A stretch of DNA of 52,675 nt, taken from the sequence record SRR31156797_3034; one strand, written 5' to 3'. The notes under the pieces were generated by a model. That model ran no database searches. It saw only the letters and a list, made by a program, of their open reading frames with translations, and had not been told where the DNA came from. Shown piece by piece: positions 7,001 to 19,567 of the stretch (within the stretch, counting starts at the first letter, position 1; the number at the start of each line of letters is the position of its first letter). The translations under genes were made by a program, and so were the position numbers.

Positions 7001-7703
7001 GGCTTACTCTATGTATTTAGCCGGTTTCGATGTGAAAGATGTTCACATGACTGACCTTATTACTGGTAGAGAAACTTTAGAAGATGTAAACTTGATTGTG
7101 TTTGTTGGAGGTTTCTCAAACTCAGATGTGTTGGGATCAGCAAAAGGATGGGCAGGAGCTTTCTTATATAATGAAAAAGCAAAAGCAGCCTTAGATGCTT
7201 TCTATCAGAGAAAAGATACCTTGAGTTTAGGAGTTTGTAACGGTTGTCAGTTGATGGTTGAATTAGGATTAGTTTATCCAGACCATGAAGAAAAGCCAAC
7301 CATGTTGCATAATAATTCGCATAAGTTTGAATCAAACTTTGTGAATATGAGCATTCCTGAAAACAATTCTGTGATGTTGAATTCATTGGCAGGAAATAGA
7401 TTAGGAGTTTGGATTGCACATGGTGAAGGTAAGTTTAATATGCCTTACGCTGAGGATCAATATAATATTGTTGGAAAATATTCATATGAGGCTTATCCTG
7501 CAAATCCTAATGGTAGTGATTTCAGTACTGCAGCCATTTGTTCAACAGATGGACGTCATTTAGCTATGATGCCTCACCTGGAAAGAGCTATTTTCCCTTG
7601 GCAGTGGGCACATTATCCTGAAAACAGAAAATCGGATGAAGTATCGCCTTGGATAGAAGCATTTGTTAATGCTCGTAAATGGGTTGAGAACAAAACGAAA
7701 TAG
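4011..7703 (+). CDS. purL: Phosphoribosylformylglycinamidine synthase (large fused type)
   Basis: NSEHCRHKIFN, KAETHNFPT, IHDHGAGG, GVCNGCQ, MMPHLER; ATG at 4011 preferred over the upstream TTG. Confidence 0.97.
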   Translation: MVLFFKGKSDQILAVGCENDFSTEDVKKLEWLFSGATKTDEQELGGFFVGPRKEMITPWSTNAVEITQNMGLTGITRIEEFYGVADENAEFDPMLQVLYKGLAQDIFTIDKEPDPIIEIEDVAAYNKAEGLALSDDEVTYLDGLAKKLGRKLTDSEVFGFSQVNSEHCRHKIFNGTFIIDGEEKESSLFKLIKRTSEENPNFLVSAYKDNVAFVEGPKMVQFAPESHDKPDYFTTKVIDTVLSLKAETHNFPTTVEPFNGAATGSGGEIRDRLGGGKASLPLAGTAVYMTSYSRSEEGRTWEQATPARPWLYQTPEQILIKASNGASDFGNKFGQPMICGSVLTFEHFENQKKFAFDKVIMMAGGIGFAKKSDAIKDTPKKGDKVVILGGDNYRIGMGGGAVSSVATGEFDNSIELNAVQRSNPEMQKRAMNAIRAMAEGEDNPIVLIHDHGAGGHLNCLSELVEETGGTIHLDKLPVGDPTLSAKEIAGNESQERMGLVLHEKDIERLKKVADRERSPMYVVGETTGDMSFVFKDDKGNAPINWQLADMFGNPPKTIMQDKTVEEKFAAVEYDAAKIEDYIKDVLQLEAVACKDWLTNKVDRSVTGKVAKQQCAGEVQVPLNNLGATALDYTGTKGLATSVGHAPAVAMIDPAAGSKIAIAESLTNLVWAPMTHGIKGVSLSANWMWPCKNEGEDARLYKAVEAVSDFATDLGINIPTGKDSLSMTQKYKDGDVVYSPGTVIISAAAEVSDIKKIIEPVLVKDTDTSVIYIDLSFDSHKLGGSSFAQVVHKLGAEAPTIADTDYFKNGIETIQELINKDLILAGHDISAGGMLTALLEMCFANNSFGIKADLSEIAEDDLVKILFAENPGVLVQVKDVAQVKALLEEKELGYQVIGSPVEERFLTVTKGGQNLSFDINEMRDIWYKTSYLLDRKQSTAELAKERFDNYKKQALEFNFGVDFKGKLGDYGLNLSRQEKTGVKAAIIREKGVNGDREMAYSMYLAGFDVKDVHMTDLITGRETLEDVNLIVFVGGFSNSDVLGSAKGWAGAFLYNEKAKAALDAFYQRKDTLSLGVCNGCQLMVELGLVYPDHEEKPTMLHNNSHKFESNFVNMSIPENNSVMLNSLAGNRLGVWIAHGEGKFNMPYAEDQYNIVGKYSYEAYPANPNGSDFSTAAICSTDGRHLAMMPHLERAIFPWQWAHYPENRKSDEVSPWIEAFVNARKWVENKTK

Positions 7704-7727: not shown

Positions 7728-7753
7728 AAAGCCGGATTTATTAGTCCGGCTTT
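7728..7753. terminator. Bidirectional intrinsic terminator between purL and the convergent gene
   Basis: AAAGCCGGA-N8-TCCGGCTTT with A/T runs on both sides. Confidence 0.75.
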
Positions 7754-8286: not shown

Positions 8287-9321
8287 CTATGGGTTGATGT
8301 TGGCTGAGTGAATATTTGTTTCTTTAACTACTTTAAGACCTAAAATGCCATTTTTAATAACGAAGGTAACTTGGTTATGCTTCTTTATTTCTTCAGTATC
8401 AAAGAAGGTTCTCAAATAAACATATTTCTGATAGGCATTATCATTCAGGGTAATGGTTGCATAAACACTTGAGGAGTATTGAAAATCATATTTGTACCAA
8501 TACGTTTCTGAAATAGGATTAAAAGAAAAGATATAATTAATTAAGAACAAAAGGTTAAGTATTAATGGAGCAGCAACTATTTTAAAGAGATACCTATAAT
8601 ATCTTCTTTTTATTCTTTTTGACGTATAGTAGGTTGTAATAAATCCAAGTAAGTAGAGCAGTGCAATATATCTGAATTGAATTAATGTATTTAGCGTAAT
8701 CTGAAAAAATAGAAAAATATTAATGAAGTTAAAGATGACGATGTTAATAGCTTTAGACTGAATGGTTGATTCACTTTTTAGGTAAAGACTTTTAAGATTT
8801 ATTTTCTTATACATATTAATTAAAAAGCTGAGCCATAGCGGTGACGTAGGTAAAATTATAATAGCGCTAAATATTAATGACATGGGACCATGTTCTCTGT
8901 AGCTTAGAACAGGCAATCCAACAACCAACATTAAAACCAAAGCTGTTACCAATACATCAGCTAATACATTAATAGCTTCGGTGGTTTTATAGATATCTGA
9001 TTTAATGTAAGCTTCGTACCTCATGCGGGCATACTCGCGTGCACGTGCTCTGGCTTTTTCTCTTTCTTTTTCTTGCCATTGTTGTTGATAAGCAGCTTGT
9101 TTTTGTGCTTGTTGCTTTTGTCGGTTGATTCTGTTGGTGGAATGACCAGTAGTATTTAATAGGTATTCATAAGCTTCGTTGAGTAAAATAAATTGTTCGT
9201 GGGCGTTTTCTGATTTATTTCTATCAGGATGAAGATATTTTGCTTTTGTTCTATATGCTTTTTTTATCTGATCTAAAGTCGCATTTTGAGTTACACCTAG
9301 TATTTGGTAATAATTATTCAT
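8287..9321 (-). CDS. J-domain (DnaJ-like) membrane protein
   Basis: N-terminal YYQILGV...IKKAYR...HPD...LNEAYEYL followed by several TM segments. Confidence 0.85.
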   Translation of the reverse strand: MNNYYQILGVTQNATLDQIKKAYRTKAKYLHPDRNKSENAHEQFILLNEAYEYLLNTTGHSTNRINRQKQQAQKQAAYQQQWQEKEREKARARAREYARMRYEAYIKSDIYKTTEAINVLADVLVTALVLMLVVGLPVLSYREHGPMSLIFSAIIILPTSPLWLSFLINMYKKINLKSLYLKSESTIQSKAINIVIFNFINIFLFFQITLNTLIQFRYIALLYLLGFITTYYTSKRIKRRYYRYLFKIVAAPLILNLLFLINYIFSFNPISETYWYKYDFQYSSSVYATITLNDNAYQKYVYLRTFFDTEEIKKHNQVTFVIKNGILGLKVVKETNIHSANINP

Positions 9322-9402
9322 TTTTAGATCAGGGTTTTATATTATAGAAGTGCTCTAAAATAAGTAAAGTTTCTCTTTTAAGGTAAGATTGAACTTTTTA
9401 TT

Positions 9403-9410
9403 TATCTTTG
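9403..9410 (+). promoter_or_regulatory. -7 promoter element of the que operon
   Basis: TATCTTTG directly upstream of the riboswitch aptamer. Confidence 0.65.
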
Positions 9411-9421
9411 CGGATGAATTA

Positions 9422-9463
9422 AGACAGTTCGTTTACGCCATCCTGTCTATAAACAAAACCAGG
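9422..9463 (+). ncRNA. preQ1-I class riboswitch aptamer (variant)
   Basis: P1 AGACAG/CTGTCT, loop TTCG...CCATC, A-rich tail ATAAACAAAACCAGG; located in the 5' UTR of queC. Confidence 0.8.
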
Positions 9464-9525
9464 GTAGAATTAAGATACTTTTCTTGAGTACATATTTCTG
9501 TACGTATAATTCTATCTATTGTTTT
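9462..9525 (+). terminator. Putative riboswitch-controlled terminator
   Basis: GGGTAGAATTA (9462-9472) pairs with TAATTCTATCT (9507-9517), followed by ATTGTTTT. Confidence 0.5.
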
Positions 9526-9608
9526 GGGATTCATTCTAATAGCTAATAGCCTTTAGATGATTGTGGATGAGCTGTTTTAGCGAAAAACTAATAGCTAATA
9601 AAAGTAAT

Positions 9609-10283
9609 ATGAACAAAGCAGTTGTATTATTATCCGGAGGTTTAGATTCTGCAGTGGCTTTATATTTAGCCAAGAGCAAAGGTTACGATGAAATTCATGC
9701 TATTTCATTTAATTATGGACAGCGTCATGAAACTGAATTAAACCATGCCAAAGCCATCGCGCAAAAAGCAGGTGTTCATGCTCATAAGATTGTAACATTA
9801 AACCTGGGCGATTTTGGAGGATCATCTTTAACGGATAAGAATATAGATGTGGAAGATGGTGATGTAAACAGAACAGATATCCCGGTAACTTATGTGCCGG
9901 CTCGTAATATGGTGTTTTTATCAGTTGCTGCATCTTATGCTGAAAGTATTGAGGCTCAAAATATATTTATTGGAGTTAGTCAGGTAGATTATTCTGGTTA
10001 TGTTGACTGCCGCCAGGAATTTATTGATGCCATGGAAACTGCCATCAATAAAGGAACAGTAATGGGAGCTGAGAATAATAAACCGATAAAGATCCATGCC
10101 CCATTTGTAAATAAAACAAAGGCAGAAGAAATAACTCTGGGAATGGATTTAGGTGTTGATTTTAACCTTACCTGGTCGTGCTATCGTGGAGGAGAAAAGC
10201 CTTGTGGTACTTGTGATAGTTGCTTGTTAAGAGCTAAGGCTTTTGAAGAGGCAGGATATAAAGATGCTGCACTTGATAAATAG
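9609..10283 (+). CDS. queC: 7-cyano-7-deazaguanine synthase
   Basis: LSGGLDS, NYGQRH, TYVPARN, SGYVDCR, TWSCY...CGTCDSC; ATG at 9609. Confidence 0.95.
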
Positions 10284-10374
10284 TCATTAGATAATTAGTG
10301 CCTTCGGTAATAGATAAAATATTTTTGTCACGGTTAGATTTCAAATAGCCAAAGATGAATTGCTAAAAGCAAAA

Positions 10375-11289
10375 ATGATGATTGTTGAGGAGAAAATAAA
10401 AGAGGAAAATAAAACGATAGATACAGCAAGTCAGGCAAAACTTGTGTTGGTTGGTGAGGGTGTTTTTCCGATTACAAAAGATGCAAAAGGTAATGATATT
10501 GAGGACGGTCCGCAAACCGGATTAGGTATTGCCGGAACCATTCAGGGCGAAGGAAAGCTAGCAGGTACTCCATCATTATTTATTCGCTTAGCTAGTTGTA
10601 ATTTGCGATGCATCTGGGAAATGGCTGATGGAAGTTATTGCAGATGCGATACAGCTTATGCATCGTTTCATCCGGATGATAAAAAGTCTTGGGATGTTCG
10701 TGACATAGTAGATACTGTAAAGCAAAATATTGGTGGTATGCAGCATGTGGTGATTACCGGTGGTGAGCCATTGTTACAAAAGAAAGGTGTAGCAGCTTTA
10801 TGTAAGCTTCTAAAAACAGAGTTAGGAGTTCTTATTACCATGGAATCAAACGGTACCTTGTTTGATAAAGATGTGGCTAAATATATCGACCTGTTTAGTA
10901 TTTCGCCAAAACTAAAAAATTCTGTGCCTAATGCAGATAAATTAAGTTTTTATAAAGAAAAAGAGTCAGGTGCATCGAAATACCATGGTGAGATAAGAAA
11001 AAATATTGAGGCTTTGCAAAGCTATATCTATTATGCTAACAGTTGTGAAAAGGATTTGCAATTAAAATTTGTAGTAGGTAAAAATACAGACGCAGAAGAG
11101 ATCAAAAAAGAATATCTGGATCAGCTGCTTGCATATAACAAAGAGGATATCATGTTAATGCCACTGGGAGCTAAGCACGAGCAGATTGAAAAATCGAATC
11201 CAATTGTATTACAGCTTTGTATTGCCAATGGCTGGAAATACTCTCCACGTATTCATATTGATATTTTTGGGTCAAAAATGGGCGTTTAA
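10375..11289 (+). CDS. queE: 7-carboxy-7-deazaguanine synthase (radical SAM)
   Basis: TIQGEG, FIRLASCNLRC...CDT, VITGGEPLLQ, ESNGT, SISPKL, RIHIDIFG; lies between queC and queF; exact start uncertain. Confidence 0.9.
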   Translation: MMIVEEKIKEENKTIDTASQAKLVLVGEGVFPITKDAKGNDIEDGPQTGLGIAGTIQGEGKLAGTPSLFIRLASCNLRCIWEMADGSYCRCDTAYASFHPDDKKSWDVRDIVDTVKQNIGGMQHVVITGGEPLLQKKGVAALCKLLKTELGVLITMESNGTLFDKDVAKYIDLFSISPKLKNSVPNADKLSFYKEKESGASKYHGEIRKNIEALQSYIYYANSCEKDLQLKFVVGKNTDAEEIKKEYLDQLLAYNKEDIMLMPLGAKHEQIEKSNPIVLQLCIANGWKYSPRIHIDIFGSKMGV

Positions 11290-11355: not shown

Positions 11356-12234
11356 ATGTCCAATTCAATAGAAGGAAAAGTATTAGGTAAACAAATCAGT
11401 CACCCGAGGGAATATGCTCCGGAAATATTGGTGGCTGTTCCTCGTTATTTAAACCGTGAACAGTACGATATTCAGGAACAAAATTTACCATTTGTGGGTT
11501 ATGATGCCTGGCATGCTTATGAGTTAGGTTTTCTGACTCAAAAAGGATTTCCTGTGAGTGGAATACTAAAAATTGTTTACCCTTGTGATAGTACTAATTT
11601 AGTAGAAAGTAAATCCCTTAAGCTATATCTGAATTCATTTAATATGGGCAGATATGGTGAAAATCGTAAACAGGGTATAGAGACGGTGCTGGAAACCATT
11701 AAAAACGATTTAACAACTCTGTTGGAGACTGAAATACAGTTGCAATTTCATTCAGCATACAATCAAGAATATGATTTTAATGATTATGCTTTATTGGAAG
11801 AACTACCAGAAGCTGATCAGATTGAATTTGATACTTTCAAAGAGCATAAAGATTTTATAGTAGGGCATGCATCAGAGGAGTTACATACTTATAAAGTAAG
11901 TACGAATTTGTTGCGTAGTAATTGTAAAATTACGCATCAACCCGATTGGGGAAGTGCGTTTATCTCTATTAAATCAAGGTTCGAAATTGATTTAATATCT
12001 CTATTGAAATATTTGGTTTCTATCAGAGATGAAAATCATTTTCATGAAGAGATTTGTGAGATGGTTTATAAACGATTATTGGATCGATTTGAACCCGAAG
12101 AATTAGTGGTTACGTGTTTGTATACGCGTAGAGGAGGTATTGATATTTGTCCGGTTAGGGCAAACAAAAAAGAATTATTACCACCTAATATCATTCGGTC
12201 AAATGTATTAACTTCACCGGCATTTAGACAATAA
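11356..12234 (+). CDS. queF: NADPH-dependent preQ0 reductase, bimodular (YqcD) type
   Basis: ESKSLKLYLNSF QueF motif, RSNCKITHQPDWG, FHEEICE, YTRRGGIDI. Confidence 0.95.
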   Translation: MSNSIEGKVLGKQISHPREYAPEILVAVPRYLNREQYDIQEQNLPFVGYDAWHAYELGFLTQKGFPVSGILKIVYPCDSTNLVESKSLKLYLNSFNMGRYGENRKQGIETVLETIKNDLTTLLETEIQLQFHSAYNQEYDFNDYALLEELPEADQIEFDTFKEHKDFIVGHASEELHTYKVSTNLLRSNCKITHQPDWGSAFISIKSRFEIDLISLLKYLVSIRDENHFHEEICEMVYKRLLDRFEPEELVVTCLYTRRGGIDICPVRANKKELLPPNIIRSNVLTSPAFRQ

Positions 12235-15595: not shown

Positions 15596-15626
15596 AAAAG
15601 CGAGGTTTTACACTTCGCTTTTTTTA
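15596..15626 (+). terminator. Intrinsic terminator
   Basis: AAAAGCGAG...CTTCGCTTTT followed by a T-run. Confidence 0.7.
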
Positions 15627-18581: not shown

Positions 18582-18584
18582 CAG

Positions 18585-18621
18585 AAGCGCTTAAAACATA
18601 TGTTTTAAGCGCTTTTTTTTT
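18585..18621 (+). terminator. tRNA terminator (perfect 30-bp palindrome plus T-run)
   Basis: AAGCGCTTAAAACATATGTTTTAAGCGCTT followed by TTTTTTT. Confidence 0.8.
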
Positions 18622-19539: not shown

Positions 19540-19567
19540 AAAGAGGCTGTCTACAGTCTCTTTTTTT
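19540..19567 (+). terminator. Intrinsic terminator
   Basis: AAAGAGGCTGT-CT-ACAGTCTCTTT followed by a T-run. Confidence 0.7.

Follow-up and report, generated by a model that had tools for sequence, protein, structure and literature searches.

The leader of the queC operon in a 52,675-nucleotide stretch of DNA (sequence record SRR31156797_3034, hereafter the window) very probably contains a class I riboswitch for prequeuosine-1 (preQ1), one that resembles type I and belongs to a subtype with a 15-nucleotide (nt) loop; we base the assignment on sequence comparison and gene context. The aptamer hairpin (9422-9448) and its A-rich tail precede queC, a radical-SAM gene in the QueE position and queF, and a three-way junction (9462-9517) overlaps the 3′ end of the aptamer. 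The best explanation of the leader as a whole, which we hold to be likely, is that aptamer and junction are mutually exclusive folds and that preQ1, by favouring the aptamer, would turn the operon off. All features of the leader and operon lie on the plus strand.

The aptamer and its place in class I

A first-pass annotation, made from the letters of the window, had proposed a variant preQ1-I riboswitch composed of a −7 element, a P1 stem, a 15-nt loop, a tail and a downstream stem, and direct reading of the sequence finds every one of these where it had been placed. The promoter-like motif TATCTTTG (9403-9410) has the form TAnnTTTG. P1 has six base pairs (bp; AGACAG, 9422-9427, with CTGTCT, 9443-9448), the loop TTCGTTTACGCCATC spans 9428-9442, and the tail ATAAACAAAACCAGG(G) begins at 9449 (ATAAACAAAACCAGGG for 9449-9464). 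The loop starts with U9428-U9429, C9430 and G9431, continues with the 5′ strand of P2 (9434-9439, with G9437 bulged) and ends with A9440-U9441-C9442. In the segment 9449-9461, the A-rich L3 tail AUAAACAAAAC occupies 9449-9459, C9460 pairs with G9431 by covariation and A9461 is unpaired. The next five nucleotides, GGGUA (9462-9466), have two alternative partners: P2, where they pair with C9439, C9438, C9436, A9435 and U9434, and the outer stem of the junction, where they form the basal 5′ strand and pair with U9513-U9517.

The nearest genome (G001), 99% identical over the query, was used in place of the window's own genome for gene content. Named records place this marine bacterium in Saccharicrinis (family Marinilabiliaceae, phylum Bacteroidota), and the same GTDB genus takes in records named Saccharicrinis, Labilibacter and Plebeiibacterium. 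The first-pass annotation had made conservation in relatives a check of its proposal; the element is found upstream of queC in all 23 genomes of the genus, with a near-invariant aptamer region and diverging flanks, and in 30 of the 31 sources examined. Furthermore, TAnnTTTG, which we take to be the Bacteroidota −7 promoter element, occurs within 45 nt upstream of P1 in 40/42 distinct family leaders and ends 11-29 nt before it; the transcript probably starts a few nucleotides 5′ of P1. The near-invariance within diverging flanks, the association with queC and the recurrent promoter motif together indicate that the aptamer is more than a chance resemblance.

A covariance model (CM) built here from 17 sequences (R1) matches 121 of 133 family genomes. 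All 23 matches in the genus are 50 nt long, and the listed matches in other genera are 46-47 nt, bar a few weak secondary ones; in these genera the equivalent site before queC is taken by an element whose loop has 12 nt (TTCGAAACCATC or TTCGTAACCATC) and whose tail reads CTA(N)GG. R1 also matches 5/151 genomes in a one-genome-per-family sample of the order, in which loops of 12, 13 and 14 nt occur. One genome of the genus has, at another site on its chromosome, a second, weaker match (G017:C1:2049151-2049197, minus strand; 29.6 bits) of 47 nt, and so of the 12-nt-loop type. A Bacteroidales genome from outside the family (G228) has two copies (L129 and L133), one with a 12-nt and the other with a 14-nt loop (TTCGAAATCCCATC), so that loop length varies within one genome.

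The marks described for type I are UU after the 5′ strand of P1, UC before its 3′ strand and a C in the tail (PMC11625349; PMC8752633, in excerpt). In the window these are U9428-U9429, U9441-C9442 and C9459: C9442 stands in the place of the specificity cytosine (role as given in PMC11625349), and C9459, which ends the A-run, in that of C31 of type I (PMC8752633, in excerpt). All are invariant in the 21 genus rows found by CM or BLAST; in our metagenome set they are uninformative, since the search pattern prescribed them. Across 42 distinct family rows pairing in P1 reaches 99.6% and compensatory changes occur, the outermost pair being A-U in 32 and C-G in 9 and the second G-C in 41 and A-U in one, with the inner four pairs invariant; in the 15-nt class the outermost pair is A-U 40, C-G 9, G-C 3, U-A 2 and G-U 1. 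Covariation also supports a P2 between loop and 3′ tail, in a register that differs from that of the solved type I RNA, and the element precedes queuosine synthesis genes (queC, the radical-SAM gene and queF). Like type I (Rfam RF00522), therefore, it is a small H-type pseudoknot before queuosine genes with an A-rich L3, a conserved C at the end of the A-run and the UU and UC flanking the P1 strands. It differs from type I in its 15-nt rather than 12-nt loop and in its CCAGG rather than CUA tail.

The Rfam search speaks against this assignment. The PreQ1 model (RF00522) gives no match in the window at its gathering score (39 bits) and none on 9322-9612 even at E ≤ 10; the sole Rfam match in the window at gathering scores is a tRNA. 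The first-pass annotation had named the lack of a covariance-model hit as grounds for abandoning its proposal, and formally this is the outcome. The pattern of RF00522 scores among relatives bears on how it should be read. Family relatives with 12-nt loops align over the full length of the model at 20.9-27.2 bits (five of the seven loci tested), and the two genus loci among the seven give nothing. None of 16 metagenome loci with 15-nt loops matches at E ≤ 10, and examples with 12-, 13- and 14-nt loops score 29.0, 28.8, 26.5 and 17.0 bits in the same search. We conclude that the missing match reflects a gap in the Rfam model, not the absence of a riboswitch. The lack of an Rfam match would also suit a conserved leader structure that senses no ligand, such as a protein-binding or stability element or a decayed riboswitch. 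We find this hardly credible, as the pocket positions are near-invariant across the genus and into other phyla, P1 and P2 show compensatory changes, and the association with queC is strict, with yhhQ-queF found downstream elsewhere.

The P2 helix and the ceiling of the pocket

We aligned 57 distinct sequences with 15-nt loops without gaps, 19 of them from the genus and 38 from metagenomes; mutual information and pair counts define P2 as a Watson-Crick helix of 5 bp, UAC(G)CC with GGGUA, that contains a single bulge. C9439-G9462 is C-G in 56/57 and C9438-G9463 in 57/57, followed by the bulged G9437. The next two pairs vary: C9436-G9464 is C-G 26, U-A 18, U-G 12 and G-C 1, and A9435-U9465 is G-C 34, A-U 20, U-A 2 and other 1. 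U9434-A9466 is paired in 33 of the sequences. Overall, 95.9% of cells are paired, compared with 30-41% in slid controls, and the covariation score is reached by none of 500 shuffles; these figures come from 57 related, not independent, sequences, picked by a pattern that fixed P1, TTCR and CCATC and not the covarying positions. The P2 pairs are invariant within the genus and the covariation is between lineages (metagenome, Bacillota). We count the relatedness, the invariance and the pattern-picked set against our interpretation of the helix.

The first-pass annotation had correctly noted CCAG in the window where type I has CUAG, and covariation accounts for the difference. For the base that follows the tail C, the strongest covariation is with the loop's fourth base (100% paired): G9431-C9460 is G-C in 39, A-U in 12 and G-U in 6 of the 57 sequences and likely forms the ceiling of the pocket. 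The window thus has the G-C version of a compensatory pair that is A-U or G-U elsewhere. In the solved type I RNA the equivalent feature is a C8-A12-U32 ceiling triple with CUA after the A-run, and P2 is largely non-canonical (PMC8752633, in excerpt); the window has CCA, and pairing with the A12-like place is less consistent (74%). We had considered G9437-C9460 as a P2 pair (A-U 26, G-C 15, other 1 in the family) and replaced it with G9431-C9460, because only 74% of the wider 15-nt set could form it; a base triple of G9431, G9437 and C9460 is possible. The solved type I example, from Carnobacterium antarcticum, binds two stacked preQ1 molecules (PMC8752633, in excerpt; reviewed in PMC11625349). 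As both the ceiling pair and the bulged Watson-Crick P2 differ from that RNA, we suggest that the 15-nt subtype is wired differently above the pocket.

A C that interrupts the A-rich tail had been considered unusual in the first-pass annotation, and had been explained by pairing with a G of the U-tract downstream. The comparison contradicts the first point and leaves the second weak. By our own count the position is C in 35, U in 20 and A in two of the 57 sequences, and C9454-G9526 is C-G in seven, U-G in two, U-A in one and unpaired in seven of the 17 scorable genus sequences.

The three-way junction and the polarity of the switch

The 11-bp stem that the first-pass annotation described as a hairpin (9462-9517) is present; its interior makes it the outer stem (9462-9472/9507-9517) of a three-way junction rather than a simple hairpin. 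It encloses hairpin a (9473-9484) and hairpin b (9488-9503), with two junction pairs (9485-9486/9505-9506), and is followed directly by ATTGTTTT (also given as ATTGTTTTGGG). The minimum free energy of 9462-9517 is −12.9 kcal/mol (z −2.45). When the fold is extended to 9454-9526, which adds CAAAAC (9454-9459) paired with GUUUUG (9521-9526), it reaches −17.1 kcal/mol (z −3.15). The bottom 11 pairs of this extended structure are built from the P2 3′ strand and the last tail bases on one side and from a U-rich 3′ strand, UAUCUAUUGUUUUG (9513-9526), on the other. In the predicted ligand-free fold this "anti-tail" pairs through 9513-9517 with GGGUA and through 9521-9526 with CAAAAC; it is 50-76% U in all 18 genus sequences folded.

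Aligning the 18 genus sequences to a model of the junction (R2) gives 87.9% of cells paired, compared with 38-62% in slid registers; 13 of 27 pairs change on both sides and none of 500 shuffles is as good, in an alignment that is fitted to the model and favours the structure. On a plain MAFFT alignment of the platform RNAalifold recovers P1 only; the platform required the model-guided alignment. Without 9462-9466 the outer stem is lost and 9467-9512 folds into two small hairpins (−7.9 kcal/mol). Masking the tail and the P2 3′ strand in the 18 genus sequences reduces their stability from −12.1 to −23.4 kcal/mol to −4.9 to −10.7 kcal/mol and leaves the U-rich strand single-stranded (no more than 2 nt paired) in 11 of them. 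Since GGGUA (9462-9466) serves both as the 3′ strand of P2 and as the basal 5′ strand of the junction, the models make it probable that the ligand-bound aptamer and the full hairpin exclude one another.

This overlap bears directly on the mechanism put forward by the first-pass annotation, in which 9462-9517 followed by AUUGUUUU is a terminator formed with preQ1, and the free tail hides the U-tract when ligand is absent. In its favour, both the hairpin and the U-rich run exist, at the right spacing; the model-fitted alignment preserves AAAAC/GUUUU pairing in 16-18 of 18 genus sequences; and terminator-like hairpins with U-runs stand at this position in other genera of the family. The mechanism fails, though, on base-pairing grounds, as the terminator cannot coexist with the ligand-bound aptamer: the ligand takes the basal five nucleotides of the hairpin, which covariation in 57 sequences assigns to P2, and the remainder does not close, so that the full hairpin forms only outside the ligand-bound fold. 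The complementarity of tail (9451-9456) and U-tract (9519-9524) exists as described; its energy (−5.3 kcal/mol) is equalled or bettered by 125/200 dinucleotide shuffles, and over 45 family leaders the duplex has a median z of −0.93, with 7/45 below −2. The accompanying 4-bp match of AUCC (9440-9443) with GGAU (9527-9530) is likewise present and finds no support among relatives. In intrinsic termination the U-tract lies within the polymerase when the decision is made, and pairing of the tail with it could hardly precede that decision. As our scan also finds no terminator, we consider this model very unlikely.

We propose instead that in the absence of preQ1 the long hairpin would form and the operon would be transcribed and expressed, and that with preQ1 the pseudoknot would take up the tail and GGGUA, open the junction and leave about 14-25 nt of U-rich RNA single-stranded. 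The decision would be made on RNA within the first ~110 nt and not at the start codon, and the output may be a premature stop of transcription, possibly factor-dependent (Rho), or cleavage at the exposed strand. We favour an event on the transcript because only the aptamer, the junction and the U-rich strand are conserved and the rest of the leader varies. We are fairly confident that ligand turns expression off; transcript-level attenuation of some kind has in our judgement an even chance of being the means, and any one specific route is doubtful. The OFF polarity rests on three observations. The operon makes the ligand; the queuosine pathway looks complete in G001, which has QueD-family and TGT genes elsewhere (a search of that genome did not find YhhQ); and relatives with 12-nt loops look OFF-wired, in that L085, L094 and others, by inspection of their sequences, show a U-run terminator hairpin together with a competing helix that contains the tail.

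Several results weigh against this proposal. The ligand-bound fold has no hairpin followed by a U-run, so that the OFF state shows no visible structure for intrinsic termination; a stable bound-state hairpin of that kind, the hallmark of an intrinsic-terminator platform, is thus missing. A consensus terminator scan finds none in 9250-9700, and the clear terminators of the window (7728-7753, 15596-15622, 18583-18616 and 19540-19563) are simple hairpins containing G-C pairs, with A and U runs on either side. A downstream partner for the freed strand, in the manner of a "tail mimic" relay, does not rise above chance, with one of 23 leaders reaching a threshold of no more than 3/200 shuffles as good, and a second hairpin using the freed strand with a U-run occurs in only five of 18 genus leaders by loose criteria. 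Finally, by textbook rules the ligand-free hairpin followed by AUUGUUUU is more terminator-like than any bound-state structure, which would make the element an ON switch.

In such a switch the ligand-free hairpin (stem to 9517, then UUGUUUU) would be the terminator, and preQ1 would allow read-through by moving GGGUA into P2. The overlap of an aptamer 3′ strand with the 5′ base of a hairpin that has a U-run is the arrangement of known ON riboswitches, and the ligand-free hairpin is much the stronger structure. The base of the stem next to the U-run is weak, however (G-U, G-C, G-U), no U-run follows the fully zipped hairpin (GGAUUCAUUC), and the 12-nt-loop members of the family appear, on our own reading, to be OFF-wired on the same operon. 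Moreover, with an operon that makes the ligand and a pathway that looks complete, activation by product would set up a runaway loop with no start. We therefore regard an ON switch as improbable and retain the OFF polarity.

Control at the start codon was judged unlikely by the first-pass annotation, and the relatives bear this out: in close relatives anything from 109 to 592 nt separates aptamer and ATG, and remnants of inserted open reading frames (ORFs) are tolerated between the two. Beyond about the first 110 nt the leader sequence is unrelated between species. The remnants, of a small inserted ORF, are in the queC leaders of L024 (~214-550 after the aptamer) and L019, which they stretch to 338-592 nt; in L024 it falls into two frames, whose peptides include ...SNIAEGC... 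and ...LGSLFELETQL.... They appear similar to the "four-helix-bundle / 23S rRNA intervening-sequence" proteins, which are common among Bacteroidota. A form of translational control acting at a distance would have the freed U-rich strand pair with the A-rich start region of queC and block initiation that needs no Shine-Dalgarno (SD) sequence. SD-independent translational riboswitches are predicted in a review (PMC11625349), complementarity exists in the window (CUAUUGUUUU, 9516-9525, with AAAAC-U-AAUAG, 9585-9595, or with the first codons), and in eight of 23 genus leaders the best-pairing site for the freed strand extends over the start codon and first codons. Against this, the complementarity is no better than in shuffles (38/200 in the window, and similar in most leaders), the region before the ATG is not conserved, and the distance reaches 592 nt with ORF remnants inserted. 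We give it little chance, and continue to favour an event on the transcript.

Intermediate transcripts of the window can also pair AUCCUG (9440-9445) with CAGGGU (9460-9465), and the P1 5′ strand with the hairpin a region. A conserved thermodynamic antiterminator was considered and rejected: the probability of P1 drops in about half of 24 genus sequences and does not fall below that with shuffled platforms.

The operon and the spread of the 15-nucleotide loop

The queC gene (7-cyano-7-deazaguanine synthase; Pfam QueC, E 1.5e-79) occupies 9609-10283, with its ATG 145 nt after G9464. The frame is open upstream to TTG 9561 and ATG 9567 (9561-9608); we take 9609 as the start because homologues begin at that position (MNKAV/MKKAV). 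The radical-SAM gene (10360-11289, start codon uncertain; Pfam Radical_SAM, 5.9e-9, and Fer4_12) is inferred to be QueE from its position. The operon continues with queF, encoding a preQ0 reductase of the two-domain form (11356-12234; Pfam QueF_N, 1.3e-32, and QueF, 2e-20). The rest of the leader (9527-9608) is not conserved and has no GGAGG-like SD sequence before the ATG. It contains a direct repeat, CTAATAGCTAATA, at 9536-9548 and 9589-9601, the second copy 8 nt before the queC ATG. The gene upstream of the leader is divergent in the window annotation. Further upstream, the terminator-like hairpin at 7728-7753 (AAAGCCGGA...TCCGGCTTT) has U-runs on both strands and lies between convergent genes ending at 7703 and 7769, where it could act in both directions.

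To judge by sequence comparison, the 15-nt loop with its CCAGG tail is a widespread subtype and not a local oddity. The metagenome scan, with P1, TTCR and CCATC fixed and the middle of the loop free, returned at least 119 loci, 117 of which were parsed; a few are chance matches without an A-rich tail. Among the matches listed, 53 of the 117 have a 12-nt loop, 49 a 15-nt loop, 10 a 13-nt loop, four a 14-nt loop and one a 23-nt loop; the commonest 15-nt loop, TTCGTTTGTACCATC (21 among the matches listed), is usually found with a CCAGG tail. A model built from the 15-nt-loop set (R3) gives a 49-nt match of 72 bits in Orenia metallireducens; among 151 genomes sampled from the phylum to which a Clostridium genome belongs, it matches 14.

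Two of these relatives, L261 (Bacillota, a 49-nt R3 match) and L253 (Orenia metallireducens), share with the window the loop length, the covariation of P2 and ceiling pair, and near-identical P1 and tail. L261 lies upstream of yhhQ (Vut_1) and queF. Unlike the window, it has a G+C-rich terminator hairpin with a U-run, and its start codon is closely preceded by AAGGAG. On our own reading, its P2 3′ strand is able to pair with the 5′ arm of this terminator, the classical wiring of an OFF switch. In L253 (G285:C6:120897-120945, minus strand), about 2 kb upstream of queC, two terminator-like hairpins follow the aptamer; the genes it heads encode an HGD-D-family protein and a BcrAD/BadFG-type ATPase and are not known to act in queuosine metabolism. 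The QueC of the window (9609-10283) is 62-72% identical to Bacillota QueC proteins from Orenia, Clostridium akagii, Halanaerobiales and Ruminiclostridium (loci L092, L095-L108), and the riboswitch P1 and tail are near-identical across Bacteroidota and Bacillota. This combination hints that riboswitch and operon may have moved as a unit by horizontal transfer.

Comparison with characterised systems helps to place the Saccharicrinis leader. The Carnobacterium antarcticum type I riboswitch controls translation through an SD sequence, whereas the window has no SD sequence nearby; above the pocket, the solved RNA lacks the fourth-loop-base pair (G-C in the window, A-U or G-U elsewhere) and the 5-bp Watson-Crick P2 with its bulge. 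The queC leader of Bacillus subtilis, a type II element, acts on transcription, an alternative helix serving as antiterminator against a simple terminator hairpin with a U-run (PMC11625349). Like that leader, the window's element heads a biosynthetic que operon and would engage its A-rich tail in an alternative helix without ligand. In contrast to it, the alternative helix in the window closes a three-way junction, and the search for a terminator restricted to the ligand-bound state found none in the window.

McCown et al. in 2014 reportedly defined types 1-3 of preQ1-I. Our literature search, which did not extend to the type-defining alignments of McCown et al. 2014, found no description of a 15-nt-loop form or of a fourth preQ1-I type, and the text (not the figures) of the review PMC11625349 is silent on loop insertions and uses neither "variable" nor "insertion". 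We tentatively raise the idea, which we think rather unlikely as a whole, that RNAs with the 15-nt loop make up a fourth structural type within class I, one not yet catalogued. It would have a Watson-Crick ceiling pair, a long P2 and probably a ligand stoichiometry or affinity different from that of the two-ligand type I, and would be common in Bacillota and also present in one Bacteroidota genus; in Saccharicrinis it would work with a terminator-less platform that turns genes off when, once the junction opens, Rho, an endonuclease or a similar factor gains access to a U-rich strand.

Among natural riboswitches the preQ1-I aptamer is the smallest, and it serves as a model in studies of drug targeting and of how RNA recognises ligands; recent work found two ligands within a single pocket of its type I. 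The widespread relative described here, whose helix above the pocket is re-wired, turns the choice between binding one ligand and two into a testable question. Annotation pipelines that rely on RF00522 miss the 15-nt-loop form. The review names the action of riboswitches in Bacteroidota that lack SD sequences as an open problem (PMC11625349), and the Saccharicrinis platform offers a well-defined case of it. If the fourth-type proposal were true, the exposed strand would give riboswitches a form of output that fits bacteria lacking Shine-Dalgarno sequences.

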